A program made the translations under genes and the position numbers. The notes below the pieces were generated by a model, which made no database searches, was not told the origin of the DNA, and was given only the letters and a program-made list of their open reading frames with translations. A stretch of DNA of 64,000 nt from Trichodelitschia bisporula (taxonomy: Eukaryota): positions 877,061-941,060 of the forward strand of contig ML996695.1 in NCBI GenBank assembly GCA_010356995.1, written 5' to 3'. Positions 3,592 to 61,412 of this stretch are shown piece after piece. Positions within the stretch are counted from its first letter, which is position 1, and each line of letters opens with the position of its first letter.

Positions 3592-6024
3592 TTAGTCTTC
3601 GATATCGTCATCGTCTAAAACAAGAGCATCGACCTTCTCAGTCACTTTTCCAACCGTCCCTTTACTCCGAACCCATCCTGCCTTTTGCGGCTTTCTCCAG
3701 TCATCAGGAGCATCGGTGGTCCACTGCTCACCATTGGGCTCGTCCTCATCATCATCCCCGCCCTTCTCGCGGATCCCTCGCCCGAACATTACCACCTTGC
3801 TCAGGTCCGTCATTGAGGATGGGAAGCCGCCAGCTTTCCTTTGCCTGCCCCTCTCTATTTGTGCAAGATACGGTAGCCGCTCCAGAATCAGCTCTGGCTT
3901 CACGCGGTCACCCCCGGCATCACCGGATAACCCGACTCCCCACTCGCCGTTCCCCTTCATGCGGGCAACGACCTGCTCAACCATTTCTCCAATCTCTTCC
4001 ACCCTGCGCCACACGCGCAATGATATCGGATACAGAATATGATTAGCGTTCCCCTTCCTATAACCGCCATGCGGCTCTGCTCTTTTGACAGGATATGGAA
4101 GGTTGAACGACACGCCCGCAATAGCTACGTACGCTGAGAGATCTTCTTGCCTCAAGGCCTGCGCTGAGGCACCGACTCCGTTTCCGCTCCAACGGTCGGG
4201 GGAGAGTATGTCTGCGTCCGAGAGAGTGTCTGCACATGCGCACAGCGAGTCGAGCTCGTCCTCGGCTGAGAAGCTCTTGCAGGATGGGACGTAGTTTTCG
4301 TGAACAGTGGCAACGAACGTTGATGTGTCCGCCCCGAGTTCGGTAAGAAGCGCATCGGGAGTTATCGGTGGCTTTAACGGGCGAGCTAGATGCGGCAGAT
4401 GTGGAGGAGGCTGGGCAGCTTGAGGATCTGTGCGCTTGTTGTAAATTACCTTCCCGACGGCATGAAACAAATCAAGAGTCGAGCTCCGTATGTCAACATC
4501 GGTGGTGCCTTCGGCATCCTTGTTCAGAGGCAAAGATGGCATGAAAGACGATGAGCCTTTACCCAGAGAGTAAAATTCAAGGGTGGAGATGGCATTCCGA
4601 ATATCCCCGATCTCTGCGATGGACTTCAGCAGGGCCGTACCGGGGTTCTTCTTCTTTCCCCCAGAGGCGCGAGCCTCCTTTTCTAGTACGAGGTTTAACC
4701 CTTTGGCCATGATCGTTGGCGCTATAGGCCGGAATTCGATGGTGGTGACAGCATGATGGCCGAGGATTTCAGGGCCAAGAAGACGGTGCGCAGTAAAGCT
4801 ATCTGCCGCAGCGGTGGACGTGGACAGGAGAGTTTCAGATATTATCATTACGATCGGCGTTGCTGGCTTTGGAGCCTTGGAGAAGCTTGATGGGGATGGA
4901 GCGCTGGATTCGAGGTAGAGTTGAACGGCTTTCCGAAAGGATTGCAAGGCAGGCGAAGTCCTGGAGAAGGTGTTTGGAAATTCTTCAATCAAGATCATCC
5001 TCTTCTCCGACTCGCTAGAGTGGCTTGACTTAGGGTTTAGGGACCCATCGCCTACAAGATCCAGCGTCCCGAATGTGCCAGATCGGAGCATGAAATCCTC
5101 AAACTGCGCGGACATCGAAACAAATCCCTCATCTGATTGCATTGTGCCTGTAGGATTGCGCCACTCGTTGATCCGGAGGCCTAAAACCCGCGCCAGAAGC
5201 TGGACAGTGGTCGTCTTGCCGGAGCCAGCTGGGCCTTTGAGAAGCAGAAGCCGCTGGTTTCTCCGCGCTCCGCATACAACTCCTTCAATCCAACTCCTGA
5301 CATCATCGACCTTTTTCTTATGGACAGCCAGCTCTGAGATGGACACTGGGGCAAATCTCTCCATCCACGGTCGAGAAGCTTCGGGTTCTGGTTTCGCCGA
5401 CGGCTGTGTAGACGCGGCTGGGGTGGACGCCTTAAATCCATTCCTGGTCTTAAGGAATTTCTGGCTCGCTCGAGGAGGATCGTTTTCCTCTTCACGAATG
5501 AGGGTATCCACCTTCCTCTTCGCAGTTCGCAAAGGAATTGGCCTGCTGGTTATGGTGGGCTTCTGGTCGGCCAGCCTGATCATTTCCTCGTCGAGCGAGT
5601 CATCGTCCTCGATCAAGTCCTCTTCCATGTCCAAGCTTGGAGTTGGCGTTGGGCCTCTGAGGCTAGGCGACGCGCGCCTCTGCGCCTGCGACTGTTGTCG
5701 TTGCGTCGCAGCATTGAAGAAGGAGAGTATCGAGCGCTCCTTGCCCGGAGACTTGGTGGGCCTGGGAGGCTGCGCCTTGCGCTTCTTAGGTGAGGGAGAA
5801 AACTGGACGTCGGGTTGAGGGGATGCGATTCGGTTCGAGGATCGCAACTGGCGCTGCTTCAGCGGTGACTTCGTCGGAGGGTTGGCCGAACTCGAAGGTG
5901 CTGTGATCCGTTTTGAGAGGGGTCTCGAAGGTGGAGCTTCGGATAAGCGGGTGGGTTTAGCATGCGGCTCGTCGTCGTCCTCGGATGAAATGACAATGGG
6001 CCGCTCGCCGCGCTTTGGGGCCAT
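3592..6024 (-). CDS. RAD17: Checkpoint clamp loader subunit Rad17 (S. cerevisiae Rad24)
   Basis: 810-aa ORF: PW.ERFAP....ELAVHKKKV, Walker A GPAGSGKTT, ILIEEFPN, GDIRNAI, LFHAVGKVIYNKR, acidic DDDIED C-terminus. Confidence 0.95.
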   Translation of the reverse strand: MAPKRGERPIVISSEDDDEPHAKPTRLSEAPPSRPLSKRITAPSSSANPPTKSPLKQRQLRSSNRIASPQPDVQFSPSPKKRKAQPPRPTKSPGKERSILSFFNAATQRQQSQAQRRASPSLRGPTPTPSLDMEEDLIEDDDSLDEEMIRLADQKPTITSRPIPLRTAKRKVDTLIREEENDPPRASQKFLKTRNGFKASTPAASTQPSAKPEPEASRPWMERFAPVSISELAVHKKKVDDVRSWIEGVVCGARRNQRLLLLKGPAGSGKTTTVQLLARVLGLRINEWRNPTGTMQSDEGFVSMSAQFEDFMLRSGTFGTLDLVGDGSLNPKSSHSSESEKRMILIEEFPNTFSRTSPALQSFRKAVQLYLESSAPSPSSFSKAPKPATPIVMIISETLLSTSTAAADSFTAHRLLGPEILGHHAVTTIEFRPIAPTIMAKGLNLVLEKEARASGGKKKNPGTALLKSIAEIGDIRNAISTLEFYSLGKGSSSFMPSLPLNKDAEGTTDVDIRSSTLDLFHAVGKVIYNKRTDPQAAQPPPHLPHLARPLKPPITPDALLTELGADTSTFVATVHENYVPSCKSFSAEDELDSLCACADTLSDADILSPDRWSGNGVGASAQALRQEDLSAYVAIAGVSFNLPYPVKRAEPHGGYRKGNANHILYPISLRVWRRVEEIGEMVEQVVARMKGNGEWGVGLSGDAGGDRVKPELILERLPYLAQIERGRQRKAGGFPSSMTDLSKVVMFGRGIREKGGDDDEDEPNGEQWTTDAPDDWRKPQKAGWVRSKGTVGKVTEKVDALVLDDDDIED

Positions 6025-35770: not shown

Positions 35771-36491
35771 CCGGCGGCGAAGTCTTGATGGCCCCTCACC
35801 GATCGGTGGCACTGGGGCGAGGCACTAATTTAAAGGCAGGATGAAGGCTTGCAGTCGCTCATGAGAGAAAAAGGCATCGAACGTTGTCTTCCTTTCGGGC
35901 TGAGTCAGAGCTTGGTAATCATGAGCTGGTGGCTACACCAGCACCAAGATATCCGGCTCCGGTGGGAGACGCCGAAGCTGCTCAGGTCGGCTTTTGCAGC
36001 TATTTTGTCACCAGGTTTGATGCAATCTGTGACCGAAAGGTTGGAAGTAGGTACGGGTTTTGGTGTTTACCATCTTGGAGTTCGCTCTGCACCGGTGGAC
36101 ATAAATTATCACCTGTCAGTATGTTTGTCAGTAGAGGAAGAGTCGGAGAGTCAAAGATACACAGCAATAGTACACCGATATCGCAACTCAGTCTCTCTTC
36201 ATTCACAGACGGCATTTGATATGGCCCTAAGGAAGGAGCATCCTCATGTCACGAGGTACATATCAGCATCAGAAGGAGCATCTTTATTCTTGAAGAAAGG
36301 GACAGGACGACTATGGCAAGCGCGCAGAAGGATACTTGACACGGCATTTCATACGTCATAGGACGGCTCCCGCCGCTCCCTCCCCATTCTCTTCTCTTTG
36401 TCTTTTGATCAGATTTTACTTTCAATTTGTACTTGTTGCTACGCCCGCTGAGGCTATGCCCCATCATTATTGACAATCTCTAGTAACCCAT

Positions 36492-37558
36492 CTACGCAAT
36501 AGGTGGCAGACCCGCGGCCAGCGTATCCGACTTCAACCGCTCCAACGCCTCCTCCTTACTCGCAGGCATCAGCGCGCCTTCGGGCGGGCTATTCTTCCTC
36601 TTGAAGTCATCCGACATCTCCGCATACGTGACCCACTCCACACCCTCATGCGAATTGATATACTCAATCAATCTGCGTCCGTCAGCTCGCTCAACCGCTC
36701 CCCGCACATAGCAACTCACCGTTCATGCATGAGGATAACATGCGGCCTCCCGGACACATCGGGATGAATCGTAATCGGAAAAATAAACTCATCATACTCA
36801 CGGTAAAAATAGTCAAAATGATCGCGCCACAAATCCTCAACATCCCTCGGGTTAACCCAGCCATGGCTATTCGGCGCCTTCTTGATAAACATCATCGGCG
36901 GCAAATCGTCCAAATACCAATTCGCCGGGATCTCGACCAAGCCCGTCTCCTTCCCCGTCTTCAGCGGCTTCATCCACTCCTTCGCATCCTTTCCATAATC
37001 AATCTTCGTCCAGCTATCCCCAACGCGGGCCCAGTACGCCTCGCAATCGTGATGACTGAACGAGTGATCATACTCCACCCCATACTGCAGCAGGAGCTCG
37101 GCGCCCTCAGAACTGGTCTCCCACCACGGCGCCACGCTCCCACGGGGTGGCACACCGCCGCAAAACTCCGTCAGCAGCGCAACCGTCTTGGCCAGCACTG
37201 CACGCTGCTGCTCACTGCTCATGTCCACGGGGTTCTCGTGCGAGTACCCGTGGAGGCCGATCTCGTGCCCTGCGTCGCGCACGGCTGCCATGTCAGCCGG
37301 GAAAGTCTCGAGGCTGTGCCCGGGGATGAACCAGGTCGTGCGCATGTTGTACTTCTTGAAGAGCTTGAGGAGGCGCTGCGTGCCGACTGTACCAGCAAAA
37401 TAACCTGAAGAAGTAAGAATAACGCAAAGCAGACTGGAGAGGGGGAGCAAACCGCGGCTAATGTCGCTCGGTGAGTCTTCACCCCCGTAACTGCCGAGCC
37501 AGCCGGCGACGGCGTCGACGTCGACGCCGTAGCCGCAGAGGACGCGCTTTTTGCCCAT
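36492..37558 (-). CDS. Cytosolic CE4 polysaccharide-deacetylase-fold hydrolase, Helicobacter PgdA-like subfamily
   Basis: [70 protein letters not shown]; no signal peptide; introns 37405-37452 and 36673-36719. Confidence 0.93.
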
Positions 37559-38696
37559 TGCGGGGTTGAGAATGGGCTCTGAGGGGAGTGAAGGGTGTGA
37601 GGCTAGCTATGGGACTGACGGCGAGCAATTGGGCTCGCAGGACGGTGATGACGTGAGGGTCACAGCTGTGTCCTGTCGGCCGTCTATATACCCCTTCACC
37701 TCGCTTCCAGCGGCGTACCCCGCGTATCTGCTACCGCGTCACTATCATCGCGTCCATGCCGCCGTGCCGCCTATCGTGATCTAAGCGGCATTGGGATCTG
37801 TGATTGGCGGGGTACGGCGGGAACGGGAATTACTGCGTAGTAAAGAGTTACCTTATCAAGTTGAAAGACCGATGGGGTATCTGATTCCGCTGGCCGCTGC
37901 ACTACCCCGCGGCTGGCTGGATGGTGGTCGTCGCGATGCCAAGGTCTGACATCATGTGCGGGGTTGGCGAGGCTTATCGGCGGGGTGGGGTTGGTATGGG
38001 GAAGGGGAGGAAAGGAATGATGTGCCCGGTTCTTACGTTTTGATAGGCGTTCTTTGGTAGAGGTTTGGCTCTGGACGAGGCCATTGCTGGGGCTGGTGGT
38101 CGATGTAAAAACTGGGAATGTGAGGTTCGAATATGATTGCCTGATTGGGATGTGAGGCTGCTCGGATCGTCCCAAAATGGCAACCATGCCACTAAAGCTG
38201 TATTGAGTGTGCAAATCGTCGTGGCAACAATGGAGGAGATGGGCCTCCCTTACCAGCAGTACACGGCCCGAGATGGAGCAGGAGCTAATGGAGACACGAG
38301 GCAGGAGCTAATGGAGCCATAAGGCAGGAGCATTGCAGGACATTTGCCACATGGTGTATTTAGTCTTGAGCATCTCTCTCCTCTCCCCTCTCCTTCGTCT
38401 TCTATCGCCTCTCGCTTCACACCGCAGGTATTGCGCGTGTCAAGCCTTTTCTTCCGTAACTAGTTCTAACACCCCTTTTCACCTGCACCCTGATCAAAGA
38501 GGCTCTCACATCCCCTGTCCATGGCATGAATCCCTTCCCTGTAAGTCCATGAAAGTCGGCCCAGCGACACGGCGTGTACTCGGGGGGGAAATACCGCACG
38601 GCTGACCCGCCACTCATACCCCGCACGCATAAATCGCTCAAACGAGCCAAACCGTAAATCGCATAAATGGTATCCTACACGCTCCCAGACCCGATA

Positions 38697-49572: not shown

Positions 49573-52500
49573 TCAATATTTTTGCGGCGGTGAGCCGGTC
49601 GCAGGACTCGGCCCGCGGGAGAGGAACAACGGCCGGGGCGTCGGGTCCGTGTCGGATTCTTCGGCATGCGGAGGTTTGGGAGTAGCGACGTCGAACTCGG
49701 CACCGTCGGTCGCATCTGCTTGCGCAGAGGGAGCGAAGAGTTCGGGCGGTGTCAGCGTGCCGTGCTTTGTCTCTGATTCGTCAAGCTGCTGCTCAGCACT
49801 AGGAAGCTCGGCAATGGCGGGCGGGGGCGGAGGCAGCGTCTCCCTCACCGGTACGTCCTCAACCGAGACGACGCTCCCATGACTGTTGGTGCGAAGCATC
49901 TCAGTGCCGAGCTTTGATGAGCCCCTTGGCCGGCCGTTTTTGGGACTTTTGGTGCGAGCATGTGTGTTGCCGAGTTCCTCGTCTTCGTCGTCACCGGATT
50001 CCGCAGATTCGGGTTTCTTTTCTAGAGAACGACGTTTGAGGCTGGTGCGTTCGGTCGGAGTGCGTCGCCGAGGAGGTGAAGACGGGGGGTGTTCCAAAAC
50101 CGGAGGGGCGGATACTTGATGAGTGAGAACCGCCTTTGGCTCAGGCTCGACACCCGGACTTCCGCTGATACCTAAACCATCGAAGCCCTGGATGAGGTCC
50201 TTCTCTTGCCACTCATCAATTGCTTGCTGTCTGATAACCACGATTGCATCGTCTGCCCGAGAGTCCCCCTCTCCGAAGAAGCTCGAGCCGATGGAGTCTT
50301 GCCTGCTAGAGCCACGGTAGCTGCTCGAGGGAACGGTAGCGCCAAAGCTTGAAGAGTTGGAGATTGGACTATCTTCAACCCGACTGGATTCCTGGCGGAG
50401 TCCGGAGAGGGGCAGCGAGGCATACTGTTGAGGCGTCCAGTTCGGCGGTGGTGGCTTCCACTGACACAAGCGACCGAGAATATCAGTGAGTTTTGCAATG
50501 GTGGGAGGCTTGTCGATCAGACCATCGAAATGATGGCTCGGTGGCAGCTCCTTCAGGTAACCGGTGACGCACACAATTGGCGTACGGGTGTTCGCATTCT
50601 TTGTGTCACGAATCATGCGTGCGACGTCGGCTCCGTTGTTCTGGGGAAGCTTGTACTCCATCATGATCACGTCGAATTTCACCTCACTCATGGCGTACCG
50701 CATCGATTCCGGACCCGTTTGTGCAGTGATGGTGCGACACCGTAACTTCTCCAGGAGCTTCTCCATGACCAGTCGGGACACTGGATGGTCTTCGCAGACG
50801 AGCACGTCAAGAGGCCGAAACATAGGTCCCTCGAGTAAAGTGATCTGGGAAAGCCTCCTCGAGCTTTGCCGGCGCCGCTGAACGCGGAGAAGGGCCTTTT
50901 GACGCGGATCCTCATTATCCGAAGATGATGGAGAGGCCTCGATGACCTGACTGCGACGCTTGTGATGGTCTGTCACCAGGTTTTTGACGACGTCTTCACT
51001 TTCCTGGGAGCTCACAGTATGGGAGCGAGTCCTCGGTGACGTAACCTTGGCTACAGCTGGGTTGCTGATCGGCCTTTGCGTGGACAAACTCCGCTCATGG
51101 TGAGATGCGGACCCAACAGGCGACTTGGCAAGCTTGATGGGCGAACTCGAGGTGGTCTTCATATTGGACATCAGCCTGGGTGCATCAAAGAAGCTCCCCG
51201 GCTGCAGCGAGCTGCTGCTGTGCGATAGCGTGGATGAGCCGCTCGAGGTTTTCCGACGGTCCTCCCGCTGCCCGGCAGTAAACTGGACCAGAAGAGGGGA
51301 CGAAGGCTGCGATATGCGGTTCGGTGATGACGTCGTCTGAGTGAGCAAGAGCGGTGACGACGGCCTGGTATTCTTGCTAGCAGCCGACATTGTTCTCTTA
51401 AGCGGCATTGGCAATGGCATCTGCATCGGCACAATGGGGCTAGACTCGAGCGACGGAGCCGACGTCATTGATGGTGAGGTGAGCGTGGATACGGCTTTGG
51501 TCTGCGCTTGCATCGTCTCTGCCCGGAGCTTTTGGATCACATCCTTGTTTGCCTTTTCGAGAACGGGAAGGTTTTTGAAGGCAAAGTTTCCGAAATCGTC
51601 GGTGGCAACAGGCTCACTAAGCCTGCGGCTCCGGCCATCTCGAACATGAGCGGGGATGTGCAGTGGCATGAGAGTCCGCTTCATGGAGTTGACTTGTGAC
51701 CGTACGCGAGACAAGGCATCATGAGGGCGTTCCGGATAGTCCGCTCCAGGCGTTCCGGCAGACGAGGTTCCTTGGTCTTCGAATTCCGAAGCAAAGCTTT
51801 GCAAGGTGGCTCCGCGGGCATCAAAGTACTCGGTATCTTCCGGGTTTTCCGGAGCGGGAACGAAGGAGGCTTCGTCTTCGCGCAAGGTTTCCCAATTGAC
51901 ATCGGCGAACCAAGGATGGTTCTTGATTTCTTCTCCACCACTGGCAAATTGCTCGCCCACGTTTGCTCCAAGGCGATTCGACGGGTCAAGGCACATCAAC
52001 CTATTCATGAGATCCTTGGCTTCATCGGACACCGGACAGACTTCTTCTGGAGGCCAGTCAATCTCCCGTGCCAGGATGCGTTGGAAGACCTCCTCAGGTG
52101 TGTCCGCATGGAAGGGTGGATATCCAAAGAGGAACTCGAATAGTATGCATCCCATTGACCACCAATCACTGACTTCGTCCTGCCCAACACCATTGATAGT
52201 CTCTGGAGCGAGGTAATCCGGAGTGCCAACAAACTTCCGAGTGGTATCCTGGGGGTCAAATAGCGCAAGGTTAGGAGGCAACATTCCCGACGCCGTTACT
52301 GGAGGGGTATTGCTGATCTGCATCAAGCTGGTGTTACTGGCCACTGGATGAAGTAAGTATGGATCGGGAGAGTGGTTGTCTCCGTGGATAGAACCCTCGT
52401 CAATTGCTGAATGCGACCCATTCCCACTTTCATCCGCGATGGAAAGCTTCCGTAGCATGGATTGTAGGGCATCACTGTTTTCGCTGTCGCTCCTGCTCCC

Positions 52501-55432
52501 CGCTTTCGATGACTCGCGGTTTAGGCTGAAATAGGACGGTTGTCCGAGGTCCGTCTGAAAGGCGGGTGTCAGACTTGGAGTCTGGCTGGGCGAAGTGCCT
52601 CCCTGTATGTCGAAAGATGCTGACCGGGATGACCCAACCGAGATTGCGCGGTGGAATGGGCCTTGCTTGAGCAAGTCAGGAACCGGGGGCTCCGTCTTGT
52701 TGTTGAGAGCGCGCTTTTGTCGGCCCACAAGACCCATACGTGACAGACCAAAATCGGTGAGCTTAAGATGGCCGTTCTGGTCAATAAGCAAATTGTCGGG
52801 CTTCAAATCGCGGTGGACAATCCCGCGGCTGTGCAGATGCTCGACCCCAAGTACGACTTCCGCAAGGTACTTTTTCGCCCAGTCTTCGGGCAAGCCCCCG
52901 AGCACCTTGACAAGTGAAGCGCAGTCGCCGCCATTGAGATACTCCATAACAAGGTACAGGTAGTCCTTGCTCGAAAAGGTCCAGTAGAGTTTGGCAACAA
53001 AATCGCTCTCTCCTTGCCACATCATGATAGCGCGCTCAGCTTTGACGTTCGTGACTTGATTCTTCGCAACCATGTCGGCTTTCTTCAGCACTTTGATAGC
53101 AAAATAGTCGCCCGTAGACTTCTTCTTGGATAGGTAGACGCTCCCAAACGCTCCTTTGCTGATGGGCTTAATGATTTCAAAATCCTTGATTGACGGAGGG
53201 ACGGCACGGGGTTGCGGATGGCTACTGACAGCAGCAAGCCGTGGAGATACAGGGGGTCGGAACACTTCAGACGATGCAGTGGAGGACTGCCGCCGGTGGT
53301 GATGATTATACAGGTGCTGGGCTACGATCGAAGGTGACGAGAACTCGCTCGTCGATAATACAGGCGATGTGATCGGCGACTCCATCATTTCCACGCCACT
53401 TGGAAGCCTAGGCTTGGGCATCCGCAGAGGGGACGCCGGCACCGGAATGCTTCTAGCAGGCGACTGCCCTCTGCTGGACATGACGCTAGGAAGGATGAGG
53501 CTTCTGCGTTTTCGGTCGCGCGAACTCGTTACCCGGGTAAGGCTAAGTTCCGAGCCAGGCGAATCGACACGTCGTGGAAGGGATATCGCTGATGAAAGAA
53601 CGCTGCTATCGCTATCGGCACCCGTATCGCTCTCGAAGTGAATTGAAGCGCGGTTTGCGGGGCGTACTACGTTCGTTGGTCCACTGTTGGAGAAGTCCGT
53701 ATGCGAACGCGGCGTCTGTATGCCTCGAGGGCTGCTAGAACGCGTAGACGTGGCGGTAGACGAGGCCGGGCGGTTCAGGCGAGAGACCAACGATGCCTCG
53801 GAAGTGTTTCGCAAAGCCATTGCCATGGGCGACAGGTTCTCCGGCGAACATGAAAATATCTCTTCCGGGGGGCGCCCTTCGGGAGGGGGATCGGCTTCAT
53901 TGACAATCGGATCTGCCACACCCTCCTCCTCCTCCTCGCTCGAGTCGCTGATTTCACCCGCGGCCAGACGCCTCGCCTTCTCCATTGCAGCATCTATGCA
54001 CTCTGAAACTAACAGATCAAATTCAATGCGAATGCGCTCGGAGTACTCCAAGATTTTACGGTGCCGGAAGATGGCATCTACTTTGGCCCTGGCGAGCTTT
54101 GAAGTGTCCTCGCACAGAGCTGCAAGGCCTGGCTCTGCTTCAAATGTAAGTGCCCCTGGAGACTGCCATTGAAGAACCTGTGCGGACCGGCTCTCTGACT
54201 GCGGTGACTGCGTACGAAACTCTCCTGGTGGCTGACCACGGGTTTCCTTCAAGGCAGGCGTATTTATTTCCAAAGCGGTATCGCAGAGATCCAATACCAG
54301 TTCAACCATACGAGCGATGGGTCGCCGTATAGCAAAAGATGGTCCTCGGTGATGGCCAAACCCTTTGCTGGAGCGGTCTCGGCTGCGAGAAGGAGAGGCA
54401 GGGGACGCACGTCCCGACGATGGCCCCGAAGAAGGCGTGGAGGCAGATCCAATGGGGAAACCTTTGTACTCCAGCACAGCCGGAAGCGCAGGAGCAATTT
54501 CACCAGTTGATCGGGGCTGACGAGAACGAGTTTCCAAGGCATCGAGCACACGTACGATGCAGAGACGTTGTTCAACCAAGCTCTCGTGAGCCAGCTGAAC
54601 TTCCATCTCTGCCTTGTGCTCTTGAAGACAGAGCTCCGTGTGCTTTTCAAACCACCATGGAGTAATCTGGCGCTCGCAAATCCTGCAGAGAACCGGCAGA
54701 GGGGGTGGATGCTGCGCAGGGTCGTTCGCTCCGACCTCGGCCAAAGCCGTAAGATACCTTGCGAGCATCTCAGCCCCAACCCCGAGGGACTCGACGAGTA
54801 CCGATGGCAGATCGATGGTTACTTCGCGAATGACATAAGGACGGATCATCCACATAGTCTAATTGAATTAGTAGTTTCTCTACACAGATGCTGCCGAAAC
54901 TTACGTGACTCTCACCCCCTGAAGTACGGTCATACACCATGATGCCCTGGCCTTCGAGGCAAATTGTCGGATCCTCGACTGGCTCTTCCGGGGCAGGCGT
55001 CTCCTCTCCGGGACCTTCCTTCGAATGTGCATGTTTCCGACGAAAAGATGAGTTGGGACCCAGAGGGACAACGAAACGAACGATCTGGCTGCGAGAGTCA
55101 TCCTTGCGCATAGACTCAATTGCTTCTTCAAATGCCGTCTTGTCCTCGAGCAGGATATCCGCTATGTTCTTCCCTCGAATGGATTCTGGGGGTGTTCCGA
55201 CCACATCACTCCATGACGGGCTAATCCAACGAATCGAGCCGTCAAGACCGAGGTCCATGATAATATTCAGGCTGTGCTCCGCCGCCTCTTTCAGGTCCTG
55301 GCGCTCCACGCGAAAGTCTTCGCTAACCGTCCTCTCCATCCGACCACGATATGGGTCACGACCGGCGGGATCGTCTCTGAGTGCAGCGACGGACCGCGCC
55401 ATAGGCGGCGGCTGGAGAGCGGGGTTTGACAT
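49573..55432 (-). CDS. RIM15: Greatwall-family kinase Rim15/Cek1 (PAS, C2HC finger, split kinase, receiver domain)
   Basis: PAS (WISPSW..VVG), CRICE...HTELC, IKPISKGAFGSV, HRDLKPDN, DFGLS, FVGTPDYLAPE, VLVCEDHPV; intron 54859-54904. Confidence 0.96.
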
Positions 55433-56037
55433 GGCGGTCAAGTGTGATTTGTTTGCAGAGAGGGCTTGGAGTTAACAGACACGGGGTAGTCTGCCCGGAG
55501 GCAGACGGAATGGAAGGCTATATGGCGATCGGTGACAGTCCCATCATGCCAATCGTTCTGGATGGGCAACCGCCAGTCTTGCTGTGAGTGTGTACGTGTG
55601 TTTGTTCGCGTGTGTACAACAGAGGGGAGCGGGGGAGCTCGATACGCGGTAGAGAGCGGAGCGCCGGCAGGGTCCTTATGATTTACAAGGCGCAAAGTGA
55701 GGGCGAGAAGGGCGAGTGGCTTGAGGGTTGAAGGGTGCTGGTGGAAATCTTTGAAGGTTAACGAGTGGGAACTGCGAGAATGATTGCGAGGAGGGGTGGT
55801 TGCTGTTGGATGTCAAAGGCAGATAAAAGCGTTGGCGGACGAGGAAGGAAGCACCATAGTTTGGCGTTTAGAGAGCGATTGAACGATATCAGAAGGGGCA
55901 AAAGTGGTGTTTTGCAAAGGCACACACACTTAGGCCTTGAGATGGAAGGGATGGGTTTGGATAGGATCACAAGTTGTTGCAGCAGCGCGATGCGGTGAGC
56001 AAAGCAGCAAGCAGCAGAAAGAGCGTAGAGCCAGTTT

Positions 56038-56055
56038 AGAGAGAGAGAGAGAGAG
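56038..56055. repeat. (AG)n microsatellite upstream of RIM15 (CT-rich on the RIM15 strand)
   Basis: AGAGAGAGAGAGAGAGAG. Confidence 0.85.
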
Positions 56056-56550
56056 CGATTGAGGGGTGGTGTGGCTTCGGCAAGTGGATAGGATAATGGC
56101 CACAAGGATGTGAGCCAAACTCGTCTTGCCATTGGTCAGCTTCAGACGCACATGATCCAACTCGGTCTGAGCGTATGATCGTTCGGCCAGCGAGACTCTT
56201 TCACCTCTTCAGTGATCTCATTTCTTAACTTTTTGTTTTTACTTCTTCAAGAGCTAAGGTATAAGACACATGAAGGAGATCAGAAAGGCCTCAAACTTCT
56301 ATATTTTGCCTTGGGCAGTCAAAGGCGGAGGGGCGGAGGGGCGGAGGGGTGCGGAGACTACTGCAGAAGGGAGAAAAGAGAGGGCCTCCCACGTATCCCC
56401 TCCTGCAACTTGGGCGGGAACTGCGGGATTACAGCGGGGGGTCCGCCTAATGCACAGCTATTTCCTGCCCCACTCCACTTGCACTCTCTCACGCTTCAGC
56501 TGTATACGGGCTGTGTCCAAACACCAAACATTTTATCACACCCCTTCCCT

Positions 56551-56670
56551 CACTCACGCACTCCCCTCCACTCACGCACTCCCCTCACTCACGCACTCCC
56601 CTCACTCACGCACTCCCCTCACTCACGCACTCCCCTCACTCACGCACTCCCCTCACTCACGCACCCCCCT
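56551..56670. repeat. 17-bp minisatellite CACTCACGCACTCCCCT x7
   Basis: Seven head-to-tail copies, one inserted C after copy 1 and one substitution in copy 7. Confidence 0.97.
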
Positions 56671-57199
56671 CACTCCCTTCCCCTCACCCCGGCTCTCCCA
56701 ACCCGCAGGGTCGCCGCGGGATTGCCTTGCCTTGCATTTCTAAATTCTCGCCGGGCCACGCCTTGGGTCGTTGCCCTCGAACCCGACGGTCACAACGCGA
56801 CGCTTCCCCGCCCAGCAATCCCCAAGGAAAACCGCTTAGAACTTCCCCCCCTCCTTGTTGCCAATCGTGCTTTCTCACTGGCCCCCAAACAAACTCCCTT
56901 CCACCAGGGCGTACTGCATCCCAAAATGTCAGGTTCATCCCCCACGGTTTTTGCTTCTCCCATCTCGAGAGAGCAATTTTTTGTCCATTCGCGAGCTTGA
57001 CAAACTTTCTAGGTGTTCATGTGTTCCCCATGGCCTGCCTGTCGTGCCGGTTGGCCTGGAGACTTGCGTCCCGGACACTCGTTGCTGGTGAAATGCACGG
57101 CTCCCGCGTGCGGCATTCTTGCATGCCTTCCTTGCTCCGTCTTACCTCTCCAATCGCCTCCCGGTCGTCTGCGCGGGGCCCGTTTCACGGGAACGACGT

Positions 57200-58850
57200 T
57201 GCTGGCAATGCCCAGCATGGATCCTCATGACAGCTGCAGCGGCCCTCCTCAATTTGTCTGGAGTGCCCATGGCAACAGGCCGAGCGCAACTCTTCATCCG
57301 TTGATGCACCCCCCGCCACTCTGCATATGGAGATGCCGCAGCAACCTCATGAGAGGTGATGGCGGTGTTTTTGGGGTTTCGCTGCAGTGCTTCTGCCGCC
57401 TGCATTGTTCCAGCATCCGGGCATGCACAAGGCATCCCGCGATGCGATGCCAACTCCACCCTGGACATCAAACTCCGAAAATAAAAGGTCGGGCCGGATC
57501 AGCGTATCGTGGTCCTTGCGGAGGTCGATTCCAAACATCGGCGATTTATGCTTCTTAGGCGTCTTGGTCTTCCACGGTGGACGATCGTAAGCCGCTTAAC
57601 GTGAGGGAGATGCAGCTAGATCCGGCCCTCTATCCCGTGGAGAGCACCCCTCACTGGGAATAAGCTTACATTCCGACTGACCTAGATTATTTGAGTCTAG
57701 GTCCGCTCTTCATTCCCAAGGCCCTACATATTGTGAGGGTGGCCCCCATTACGGAGCATATGGCCTTGCAGCCCGCCGAGTATCTGCTCTGGTGCAACGA
57801 GCCGAGTGTCTCAGTAATTATCGTCCGGTGCCGCAGCCAGCTTTGAAACACCCTGCAACGAAATGCACCAAGAGTTCTGCGGGTTAGGGACTAATATTAG
57901 ACGCGGACTATGACGTCCGTTGAATGTTTAGTTAGTCTGATATGTCGGTCGAGAACCCTTACGTATTATCTCTTGCCAATACAGTTTGCGTCTCGACCTT
58001 TGGCTTCTCCGGTTGATTAGTTCTCTGCAGAGTAACCCTTGGCCGCTACCGTGTGGCGAGCCTCGCATTAGAAGAATAGTGTCCCATGGGATTGCTCAAG
58101 AGAATGCTTCGGTCCTCGCGACCTCTAGTCGGAGGGTAACAACGTAGCCATGTCGCACCGTTGGAGCGAGGAATTCTCGACCCCGCATTCACGCGGCCTA
58201 GTTCAAACTTTAAATCTGCTTCCACATGATGGCTTCTGTGCTCTCTGCTCGGCTCAGCCAGTGGTATCCTGATTCCGGTACCTCCAAAAATGTAAGCATA
58301 TTGGCGGAATCCTGCGAGCATCCTTTGATGTTGCCCGACGCGGCTTGCCAAGGCAGTTGAGGTTGCCTCTTACGAAAGAAGGAGCCGCGTCGTTCCTTTA
58401 CTTCCAGAGTACTTGAGCTGCTAACTGAAACTGGCCAGAATGCTTCTGGCTGGGAGTCTCTTTGAACTTTGTGTCCCGTCAGATACATCTGCATCCATCG
58501 AAGGTTAAGGTAACGTGATCTGACAGCACTTACCTGTAGCTCTCGCCTCGCCAGGACAACTGGACGCCGTGACTCATCCGAGGGCGAAGTTGCCTGGTGT
58601 TGCCTTCTTGTAGCCTGACACCCTCTGACGCGTTTCAAGATGTTGAGGATAGGCAGCTCTTCACCAGAGACGCGTCCAGTCGGCGGCAGAATACTCGTAT
58701 ATCATTGAGTCTGTTGCCAGCAGGCCGGCTACAAGGCTCCGCAGACCGATGGCGGAGAAGCAGCGCGCACGGTCCATCCCCATTCGACGAGGGGCCTCAG
58801 GGTTCAGGGAAAGTAGCTAATCACTTCACTAACTTTCCCAACTATTGGCT
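57200..58850 (+). ncRNA. Candidate long structured non-coding RNA (identity unknown)
   Basis: No credible protein; at least 15 mostly nested 7-11 bp helices, several with G-U pairs on the + strand. Boundaries approximate. Confidence 0.55.
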
Positions 58851-59132
58851 CCGACGCGTCCAACAGACACTCCCTTAACAGCATCCACGACGGAACGGCG
58901 AATTGTATGCTAGAGGCTTTTACGGGCTCCCTCTGCGTCTGTCAGGGCCGTGGTGCTTGATTTCCTCGAACGCGCGCTACTCTCCCTCCCCTGTCCACGT
59001 TCTCTATCGCCGCCAACTTCACCTGTACGACACCTCCTCCGTCGTCTTCAATTGCCACCTCATCCACGACTTACGATGTACATCAGCTCGGACATCTTTC
59101 GCCCCTCCGTCAGCTTCGAACGCGATGCAAAG

Positions 59133-59766
59133 ATGGAGGGGAACCAGCAGTCTGGAAGCTCGAATATTCTGAACTCGTTTGGCAAGAGGAAAAGGACGGC
59201 GGATGTTCACGACGGCCGGTCTACGGTTTCCACTATGTACGTGAGGCAGCAGGACTCCTTTCGTAAACGACCTTTCTGACGGCTGCTCTAGCAGCCCCGA
59301 CAGCAAACTCAGACTACGCTTCCAGACTTTCGAGAACATCTACAGCTCCGGCTCTGGTCAGACCAGTGCAACGTCCGATCATCACGTTCAGACGAACAGC
59401 CCCCGCGCCTCGCCTCCGATCAAGACCCGCCGTATCCTCATCGCCTCGAAGAGCCTCCGGGCTGCCACTGCGAAGTTAGCCGCTGACAACACCACCAAAC
59501 CAATCATAATACCATCTCCCGCACCACCTGAACTGCTCGCTCCTTGCCACGTCTGCCACAAGGCGCCACGCCAAAAGCGCGACCTCGAATCGTACGAAAG
59601 CTGCTGGCGTTGTAAGAAGCGGTCTTGTTACATTTGTATCCGGCAGTGCGAGGCACAGTGCGGAGGCCGGAAGATATGTCGCGAGTGCTGCGTCGAGCGA
59701 GGTGAAGATGGCGACGTCTTCTGCCTAGACTGTCTCCAGAAGGAGGATCTTGAGATGCAAGAATAG
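59133..59766 (+). CDS. Small Cys-rich zinc-finger protein, SIVA-like pattern
   Basis: Exon 2 absent from ORF track. Intron 59237-59291 (GTACGT...CTGAC...TAG); KRKR near N-terminus; C-terminus CHVC...CWRCKKRSCYICIRQCEAQCGGRKICRECC...VFCLDCL. In-frame upstream ATG at 59076. Confidence 0.85.
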
Positions 59767-60440
59767 GGTCTTTTCGTCAGCGCCATTACCACGGATTCAC
59801 AGGAGTTATGGGTCCACAGGATATATCATGGTCATGGTTCGGCGCCCAGAGCTACGGCAGGGTGTTGTTCACAGCCGGCGTAGTCATCGAGTGGTAATTA
59901 TCATCTAGGGCGCGGGATGTGGCATTTTCAGCCTAACGGTGTTTCTTGGAGCGTTCATTGTACATAAACTTCTGTATCTACGTTGCGTTGGCCCCTTCCA
60001 TATCACTTGCTTGTAAGGGGCATGAAACGCCGACTTCGCCGCATCGGTGCTTTCCCTCTTGCTGTGACTCGAGCGGCGTCTGCCTATTTATGGCTTCCTC
60101 CACTTCCCATACTTTAACTCTGGTCCATCTCAGTACACAGCCAGACGACGGAATAACCGATCCTTCGCTCGAAGCCTAAAAACCAGGGCTCCGTATTTTT
60201 ATAGCCGCTTAACCCCGCCACATCTCAACCCCTCCCATACTTCGTCTCCAGTCCATCTCCGCGCATGGTCAGCCAACACAACAACCTCTCTCCCGCTCGA
60301 ACCCCAACCCAAGGCTCCGCCCTTACATAACCGGTTCAACCCCTCCACCTCTCGACCCATCAGCCCCTCACCTCTCAGCCCTAACCCCCACAAACGCCAC
60401 ACCCGTACATCGCAACGTACCACGTACGCTTCAACAACAT

Positions 60441-61412
60441 ATGGCCCGCAACCCGGGCTCCTCCCCTCCCCTCCCCTCCCTACCGCAAACACAAACAACA
60501 TCACAATCAGCCTCTCCGGAAAGCCAACAACCAAACCCTCACCGAGCCAACAGCCCTTCCTCCTCACCCGACTCCTCCTCCACAGTTCAACCTCCAACCT
60601 CCCCCGCCATGGACCCAACACCCCCCAAAAGCTCCCCCCCCGAACCATCTTCCATACCACTCCCGCCCTCAACAACACTCACACATACCGATCCCACGCG
60701 CCCCATCCCCGAACCCCTCAACCCAATCGAAGTCGCCACGGCCCTAAAACGCATGAAGCCATACCGCAACCACGGCTCCCAACCCCACCACCACAAGCCC
60801 CCCCCCCCGCAACAACCCCCCGCCCCCACTCTCCCCCCCAACCCCGCCCTCCCGCGCCCACCCTCCAAACCCTTCTCAGGCGACAACCCCGACGCGCTCG
60901 CCCTGCGCTCCACGCTCTCGATCCTGCAACTGCAGCGACAGCAAGCAGAGCGCGACATGGTAGCGCTGGCGCGGCAGCGCGACGCCGCGTTGCGCGATCC
61001 GGAGGCCTTTGTCGCGGAGGTGCAGCGCCGCGGTGGCAAGAGCGAGGGGGGTGGGGCCGGGGGTGTTTTGGGGCCGACGTTGGCGGGGGTGCTGAGGGCG
61101 GGGAGAGGGGGGGAGGAGGAGAGTGGGGGAAATGGGGAAGGGAAGGAGGGGGGGGTTGGACGGTTGCCGGTGCCACAGAATGTCGTGCGCGCGCCGCCGA
61201 TTAATTGGGCGAAGTATGGGGTTGTTGGGGCGGGGTTGGAGCGGATTCATGAGGATTTGAAGGCGAGGCCGGTGGAGGGGGTGCCGGAGGGAGTGTTGGA
61301 GGGGAATGGTGGGGCGAAGAGGGAGGCATATGTGCTTGCGGCGCCGTATTCGCCGTTTGCTGATGAGGAAAAGCTGAAGCAGCAGGTGAAGATGGGGGAG
61401 AAACAGGATTGA
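60441..61412 (+). CDS. Protein with ZZZ3/Ahc2-like helical domain
   Basis: NPDALALRSTLSILQLQRQQAERDMVAL....DAALRDPEAFV and LPVPQNVVRAPPINWAKY; start may be ATG ~60609. Confidence 0.75.
   Translation: MARNPGSSPPLPSLPQTQTTSQSASPESQQPNPHRANSPSSSPDSSSTVQPPTSPAMDPTPPKSSPPEPSSIPLPPSTTLTHTDPTRPIPEPLNPIEVATALKRMKPYRNHGSQPHHHKPPPPQQPPAPTLPPNPALPRPPSKPFSGDNPDALALRSTLSILQLQRQQAERDMVALARQRDAALRDPEAFVAEVQRRGGKSEGGGAGGVLGPTLAGVLRAGRGGEEESGGNGEGKEGGVGRLPVPQNVVRAPPINWAKYGVVGAGLERIHEDLKARPVEGVPEGVLEGNGGAKREAYVLAAPYSPFADEEKLKQQVKMGEKQD

Follow-up and report, generated by a model that had tools for sequence, protein, structure and literature searches.

What kind of RNA, if any, is made from a 1.6-kb non-coding tract in which short helices are packed one within another? 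The tract, at 57200-58850, lies in 64 kb of DNA from a filamentous ascomycete (the window, meaning the whole stretch analysed), and an earlier note, made from the letters alone, had read it as a long structured RNA on the plus strand, either of telomerase-RNA size or the remnant of an RNA replicon. The main effect of our analysis is to correct that reading: it had named the wrong strand, a structured RNA is not demonstrated and a telomerase RNA does not appear to be made here. Instead, a real, unannotated spliced transcript can be placed in a gap empty of gene models, beside a central starvation and quiescence kinase.

Setting of the tract

The tract lies in the right half of the gap between two divergent genes:

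49573-55432, minus strand: RIM15-type kinase gene (exon 1, 55432-54905; 46-nt intron, 54904-54859; exon 2, 54858-49573)
from 59076 or 59130 (alternative starts), plus strand: small Cys-rich gene, interrupted by one intron (59237-59291)

Pfam searches of the RIM15-type protein gave Pkinase and Response_reg domains and weak PAS matches. The plus-strand neighbour had been labelled SIVA-like; its product is Cys-rich and matched no Pfam family, so the label is not supported. The two start codons are 3.6 kb apart, and the gap holds no long ORF. For a fungus with a compact genome this is a long gap.

Four public sequencing runs were found to contain the stretch, two of DNA (X1 and X2) and two of RNA (X3 and X4). 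The DNA runs may be the source of the assembly. No dispersed repeat of the tract was found elsewhere in the window, and the DNA contigs cross it without a break, which fits a single copy. Its GC content (0.52-0.57) is the same as that of the flanks, and a tRNA scan of the 64-kb window gave no genes.

The tract lies within a spliced minus-strand transcript

All RNA evidence comes from X3 and X4, which represent one sample of one study. Their contigs, which are unstranded and have no defined transcript ends, were aligned to 54000-60500. Together they span 56635-59455, and 56635-58466 and 58534-59236 are covered with no differing letter. Three joints are present in the RNA contigs and missing from X1 and X2. 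Two of them are introns of the neighbouring genes: 54859-54904 (CT..AC) belongs to RIM15 and 59237-59291 (GT..AG) to the Cys-rich gene. The third, at 58467-58533, skips 67 nt with CT..AC ends and was found in one contig of X3 and one of X4. As these three spliced joints do not occur in the DNA runs, X3 and X4 are RNA-derived. X3 is also without cover at 55953-56386, inside the aligned region, and this silent stretch, together with the spliced joints, makes DNA contamination unlikely. The stretches without RNA cover at 56044-56583 and, in X4 additionally, at 57892-58195 were not treated as evidence.

The CT..AC ends of the third joint are a canonical GT..AG on the minus strand, so the intron belongs to that strand. 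It is the sole strand-informative feature, and it sets the transcript on the minus strand, opposite to the one that had been deduced from G-U pairs. Part of the RNA cover could be a plus-strand transcript. Only the spliced form was found at 58467-58533 in the contigs of either RNA run. The transcript has the following parts:

58534-59000 (59000 is a placeholder), minus strand: exon 1; contigs of X3 and X4 join 58534 to 58466 and continue to 59236
58467-58533, minus strand: 67-nt spliceosomal intron, GTAAGT at its 5′ end and a branch-like CTGAC 12 nt before the AG
56635-58466, minus strand, taken from the intron end alone: exon 2, the transcript body with most of the tract, continuous in X3 record 19

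In X3, record 19 consists of 56635-58466, 58534-59236 and 59292-59455, and the body is covered continuously for 1.8 kb. In X4 the cover is made up of record 23 (56635-57891), record 24 (58196-58403) and a further contig from 58389. Word depth per contig was 170 in X3 and 9.1 and 4.7 for the body in X4, which is a poor measure, and expression was not ranked. Record 19 fuses the minus-strand spliced transcript with the plus-strand mRNA of the Cys-rich gene. The merging of both strands in one contig indicates that the two RNAs overlap or abut head to head.

The tract is thus the middle of an unannotated, spliced, ORF-poor lncRNA of about 2-2.2 kb or more, running towards RIM15. The suggestion of an unannotated lncRNA therefore stands, with RNA contigs that span the whole tract, a canonical intron and no coding sign. 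A stable transcript of at least 200 nt, as expected of an lncRNA, is provided by the X3 and X4 contigs (one sample, one study), and spliceosomal processing is seen at the joint 58466/58534. The flagged interval of 57200-58850 proved to be transcribed throughout, but the transcript exceeds it, reaching to at least 56635 leftwards and past 58534 rightwards. CACTAAC at 58827, noted as branch-point-like, is without a plus-strand joint nearby, and the motif was treated as chance.

A repeat with CCCCT cores and possible action in cis

At its left end the transcript runs into a short tandem array upstream of RIM15:

56547-56675, no strand assigned: 17-nt tandem repeat in 7.5 copies, CCCTCACTCACGCACTC on the plus strand (TRF score 242, 97% matches)

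The repeat contributes nine CCCCT cores, which resemble the core of stress-response elements, to 56501-56700. This 200-nt bin is the window's densest in CCCCT/AGGGG (9 vs. 5 in the next best bin outside the neighbourhood of the repeat). The array lies 0.5-0.6 kb upstream of the ends of the RIM15 RNA contigs (55884 and 56043). RNA and DNA contigs alike break at the repeat, with ends at 56598 and 56635, and because the DNA contigs do so too, an RNA end inside the array cannot be read from the contigs. At 56400-57000 the GC skew of the plus strand is about -0.45 (C-skew), and the minus-strand RNA would accordingly be G-rich there.

We consider the chances about even that the transcript is a spliced non-coding lncRNA of Pol II type on the minus strand which, if functional, acts by being transcribed. 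If the RNA is functional, its action is probably in cis. Transcription begins to the right of 58534, at or next to the place where the plus-strand Cys-rich gene has its promoter or 5′ region. The 67-nt GT..AG intron is removed (58533 to 58467), and the RNA crosses the tract towards RIM15, being traceable to the CCCCT-rich repeat at 56547-56675, upstream of the RIM15 contig end at 56043. The act of transcription is a likelier basis for such action than the global fold, and transcription into the array upstream of RIM15 could modulate activator access or chromatin. This proposal draws on geometry: RIM15 and the transcript share one strand, and the contigs of the transcript reach the CCCCT array. 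The Cys-rich gene is a second possible target, by head-to-head overlap. If the cis model holds, the locus would be a further case of a regulator gene under an upstream same-strand lncRNA, in a little-studied fungus, with control linked to a tandem array of stress-element-like motifs.

The main rival accepts the same spliced transcript and regards it as a functionless by-product of bidirectional or overlapping initiation in the promoter region of the Cys-rich gene, tolerated in the unusually long gap of 3.6 kb. We rate it as unlikely, though it deserves serious weight. The contigs run unbroken from the 5′ region of the neighbour, the word depth of the X4 body contigs (a poor measure) is low, and bidirectional promoters give rise to a large share of fungal lncRNAs (PMC12566771). 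Nor was conservation seen. When metagenomes were scanned with the Cys-rich protein, two loci were obtained, one of which (L002) is only 1.8 kb and too short for comparison. The one usable locus (L001) has a 41% identical Cys-rich orthologue with an amino-acid-permease-like ORF upstream and has no RIM15, so it is not syntenic; blastn of this locus against the tract gave no similarity, the best chance matches outside the coding match having E≥0.2. Three observations argue in the other direction, none of them strongly: the exclusive presence of the spliced form in the contigs of both runs, the continuity of the X3 body contig over 1.8 kb, and the length of the gap for a compact fungal genome.

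To return to the cis-acting lncRNA, a more specific form of it is doubtful. Here the transcript would be a dedicated RIM15 regulator that terminates in the rapidly evolving array of nine CCCCT cores and gates activator access, while its spliced, hairpin-rich body sets its own stability. If true, stress signalling and the dosage of RIM15 would be linked by feedback in a way not described for filamentous fungi. In one literature search, none of the 10 papers listed, out of 785 that matched, reported an lncRNA upstream of RIM15.

Comparison with other fungal lncRNAs

Tandem upstream lncRNAs have precedents in S. cerevisiae, in the pairs SRG1/SER3 and IRT1/IME1. In Fusarium, carP is a 1-kb lncRNA located upstream of carS on the same strand, with a deletion phenotype (Parra-Rivero et al. 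2020, PMC6971296). The tract transcript is like carP in being of kilobase scale, from a filamentous ascomycete and upstream of a regulator on the same strand; both are poorly transcribed and without a credible ORF. The two differ in that carP shows 75-80% conservation across two species of Fusarium and its loss produces a phenotype (PMC6971296), whereas the tract transcript is known from contigs alone. The tract transcript also has an intron and overlaps with a divergent neighbour gene, unlike carP.

In S. pombe, nc-tgp1 has its poly(A) site at the Pho7 element of tgp1 (PMC12566771). The arrangement resembles ours, being a tandem upstream lncRNA that extends into an activator region; here the contigs reach the nine CCCCT cores. 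Interference was demonstrated genetically for nc-tgp1/tgp1 and the two S. cerevisiae pairs, whereas for RIM15 we infer it. N. crassa has 1478 intergenic and 1056 antisense lncRNAs, which are typically shorter and without introns (PMC12566771). With filamentous-fungal lncRNAs in general, the tract transcript shares expression below that of its neighbours, the lack of an ORF and an origin near the promoter of another gene. It differs from most of those in N. crassa in being longer and spliced, which makes its intron slightly atypical.

Helices and folding of the tract

The helices that drew attention to the tract are real. All ten of those given by coordinates were confirmed in the sequence (7-11 bp each), and the three nested motif pairs were located at 58041/58193, 58100/58173 and 58113/58166; the position of CACTAAC was likewise as given. 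Perfect stems of at least 8 bp with a span of up to 160 nt number 8, vs. 2.69 ± 1.60 in dinucleotide shuffles (0/100 reach 8), and those of at least 7 bp number 22 vs. 11.5 (1/100). Dense packing of helices thus holds against shuffled sequence, but it is not unique to the tract. Among 38 tiles of 1650 nt in the window, with a mean of 2.9 stems (sd 1.9), the unrelated tile 36301-37950 has 9 perfect stems and the tile overlapping the tract has 7. An extreme count is expected here, since the densest part of 64 kb had been chosen.

The excess of G-U pairs on the plus strand was likewise confirmed in part. Each of the seven non-Watson-Crick positions in the listed helices is a G.U on that strand. 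In an unbiased count of G-U-allowed stems of at least 10 bp the excess is only mild, with 15 on the plus strand (7.2 in shuffles, 1/60 reaching 15) and 9 on the minus strand (6.4 in shuffles, 13/60), and the tile background on the plus strand is 9.6 ± 5.0.

Windowed folding z-scores on both strands, proposed in the earlier note as a check, were calculated for eight non-overlapping 150-nt windows over 57600-58799. The means were -0.57 (plus) and -0.32 (minus), inside the ranges of 13 control blocks for both strands (-0.62 to +1.08 and -0.44 to +0.37, respectively). With another window phasing the plus-strand mean was about -1.1. Both the stem counts and the folding z-scores therefore lie within the background of the window itself, and the claim of a long structured RNA is not upheld. 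Three sub-domains were scored separately, with z figures that are biased because the borders, including 58600-58742, were set from the helices after the fact:

58600-58742, plus strand: best-folding sub-domain, a three-way junction with 58607-15/58727-35 around two hairpins, helices verified; plus z -3.06 (1/200 shuffles as good), minus z -1.33 (20/200)
57940-58005, no strand assigned: hairpin 57947-54/57991-98, stable on either strand; plus z -2.69 (3/200), minus z -3.27 (2/200)
58330-58460, minus strand: two hairpins, 58336-46/58382-92 and 58431-40/58444-53; minus z -1.83 (6/200), plus z -1.14 (29/200)

The last pair is located directly downstream of the minus-strand 3′ splice site. Taken together, the density of structure is not clearly above the local background, the preference of folding for the plus strand is weak, and most of the short helices are probably no more than local hairpins that arose incidentally.

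An RNA on either strand whose function depends on its fold, with 58600-58742 possibly placed in a plus-strand 5′ leader of the Cys-rich gene, is on these data improbable. The count of perfect stems against shuffles (8 vs. 2.7, 0/100), the plus-strand z of -3.06 for 58600-58742 and the 15 vs. 9 G-U-allowed stems would fit such an RNA, and the leader variant agrees with the presence of only three plus-strand ATGs between 58534 and 59076. Set against it are the nine stems of the unrelated tile, the block-mean z inside the control range, the post hoc choice of the 58600-58742 borders and the contigs, which have no plus-strand joint or end. Rfam searches argue against it as well: there were no hits at E≤1 over 54500-60500, and E≤10 over 56400-59100 yielded two chance matches only. 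The two were mir-927 (19.4 bits) and v-snoRNA-1 (18.4 bits), for which the gathering scores are 60 and 75.

Relation to the RIM15 transcript

The transcript shares strand and direction with RIM15 and could be a 5′-extended RIM15 isoform made from a distal promoter, that is, a long leader and not a separate gene. The known leader is already long: contigs extend to 56043 and the ATG is at 55432, a distance of 611 nt. We nevertheless hold this origin to be quite improbable: no contig links the two transcripts, the RIM15 contigs have no loose end at either 55884 or 56043, and on the minus strand 55884 is directly preceded by TC and not by the AG of an acceptor. Contig breaks caused by the repeat limit the isoform test at RIM15.

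Coding capacity

The claim that the tract is non-coding was borne out, with ORFs of up to 108 aa and negative coding tests. The longest ATG ORFs overlapping 57200-58850 are of 108, 94 and 91 aa, and in the spliced minus-strand transcript, too, ATG ORFs do not exceed 108 aa. The longest stop-to-stop frame in the tract, of 163 aa, is interrupted by the intron at 58467-58533. Codon log-odds, for which the window's seven ORFs of 400 aa or more served as training set, were obtained for 12 candidate ORFs, 11 of them in the transcript region and one antisense to the start of the Cys-rich gene. The scores ranged from -0.27 to +0.15 and were negative for 8 of the 12, vs. +0.20 and +0.21 for the RIM15 exons. 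Twelve frames, taken from the tract and from the flank to its left, matched no Pfam family at E≤0.1. The homology searches used single, unjoined frames.

A messenger for a small protein or peptide, or the transcribed relic of a decayed protein gene, would have to be sought among these short frames, and we think it as poor a candidate as the RIM15 isoform. A canonical intron in a transcript otherwise devoid of an ORF speaks for it, as a relic would account for the intron. The first AUG past the intron, at 58321, with an A at -3, starts a frame of 91 aa, and exon 1 contains a 40-aa ORF (58783-58661) with a GC3 of 0.71 and a codon score of +0.15. Yet the 91-aa ORF has no homologues in an index of 5.8 billion proteins, no Pfam family was matched and the codon scores are mostly zero or negative. 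The most protein-like frame, of 82 aa (57595-57350), gave five hits at E≤1e-3 in an exhaustive HMMER search, among them an FMN_bind repeat protein, a plant B3 protein and a translated tandem repeat. These are repeat-inflated artefacts: the proteins are internally repetitive, come from unrelated families and are matched over several short stretches. On these negative coding tests, the transcript is taken to be non-coding.

Telomerase RNA and RNA replicon

The size of the transcript is in line with the 1.3-2.4 kb of Pezizomycotina telomerase RNAs (TERs; PMC3592445), and a possible template was found in its body:

57881-57889, minus strand (the transcribed strand): CCCTAACCC, a telomere-template-like 9-mer; a motif match, probably incidental

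A minus-strand telomerase RNA with CCCUAACCC (57889-57881) as its template is very improbable, even though the non-coding RNA is about 2 kb long and its strand carries the 9-mer. Pezizomycotina TERs have a template of about 1.5 telomere repeats, a template boundary helix and a pseudoknot with U-A.U triples. Inspection by eye showed a 5-bp hairpin (57922-57903) 13 nt upstream of the box and, downstream, a U-tract (57486-57478) able to pair with an A-tract (57374-57368); a plus-strand stem at 57366-57483 is among the G-U-allowed stems. The box itself, however, is not unique, with three matches in the window (1543 on the plus, 57881 on the minus and 60379 on the plus strand) vs. 0.33 expected. 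The internal intron is ordinary and fully spliced.

The AGAG-loop-CUCU motif derives from the vertebrate P6.1 hairpin, and Rfam includes an ascomycete TER model. The Rfam scan, which the earlier note had asked for with telomerase models, gave no match. ATAAGT has four matches in the window and none in the region, and the AGAG N3-8 CTCT hairpin, a coarse test, has four in the window and none within 55000-60000, so that the AUAAGU site and a P6.1-like hairpin are both missing. AUACGU (57966-57961) and ACUAAC (57936-57931) occur 5′ of the box, where the contigs are without a joint. According to Kuprys et al. 2013, the terminal module of TER comprises an Sm site, AUAAGU and a branch point (PMC3603654). 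Pezizomycotina TERs (Qi et al. 2013, PMC3592445; PMC3603654) resemble the tract transcript in being non-coding transcripts of Pol II type of about 2 kb, located between genes and carrying a CCCUAA-type box. In contrast to them, the tract lacks the terminal Sm/AUAAGU/branch-point module, the P6.1-like hairpin and a model match, and its box is not unique.

The remnant of a structured RNA replicon, such as an integrated virus- or viroid-like element, is effectively refuted: hairpin density and nothing else speaks for it. Against it, Rfam gave no match, Pfam gave neither a polymerase nor another family in the 12 frames scanned, and terminal repeats are absent; the GC content equals that of the flanks, and the tract undergoes splicing by the host.

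RIM15 leader and upstream repeat

RNA contigs of RIM15, the minus-strand kinase gene, reach at least 611 nt upstream of the ATG (55433-56043), giving a long, pyrimidine-rich leader, and each of the two RNA runs has a joint that confirms the 46-nt first intron (54859-54904). A tandem repeat lies 0.5-0.6 kb upstream of the ends of these transcript contigs:

56547-56675, near-perfect 17-nt tandem repeat, 7.5 copies

From this repeat come nine CCCCT cores within 200 nt, all in the same orientation, and no denser cluster of them was found in the 64-kb window. The array could represent an activator-binding array born of the repeat, or a G-rich zone in which the upstream RNA terminates.

Telomere-like 9-mer

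If the spliced lncRNA upstream of RIM15 were a telomerase RNA, the telomere-like 9-mer CCCTAACCC at 57881 would be its template. We observed three copies of this 9-mer in the window (1543, 57881, and 60379) vs. 0.33 expected from shuffles; a template-like box is therefore by itself weak evidence for a telomerase RNA in this genome.

Cys-rich neighbour gene

59076-59766, plus strand, Cys-rich gene; orthologue at 5310-5870 of the metagenome contig L001

The product of this gene was assigned to no Pfam family. Its orthologue on L001 is 41% identical and conserves the GKRKR motif of exon 1. As the orthologue adjoins an amino-acid-permease-like gene, the synteny of the Cys-rich gene with RIM15 does not hold at the distance of L001. 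In one contig of RNA run X3, 32 C-rich letters matching nothing in 54000-60500 stand directly before 59426, within the gene; they may stem from an alternative upstream exon, or else reflect a chimera or an artefact of assembly.

Composition and inverted repeats

The window's top count of short inverted repeats, nine perfect stems of at least 8 bp, falls in tile 36301-37950 and exceeds that of the flagged tract at 57200-58850. At 60200-61400, extreme GC skew climbs from -0.64 to +0.57, with GC content up to 0.73 and open frames overlapping on both strands. Beneath this extreme lies:

60213-61412, plus strand, proline-rich, low-complexity ORF
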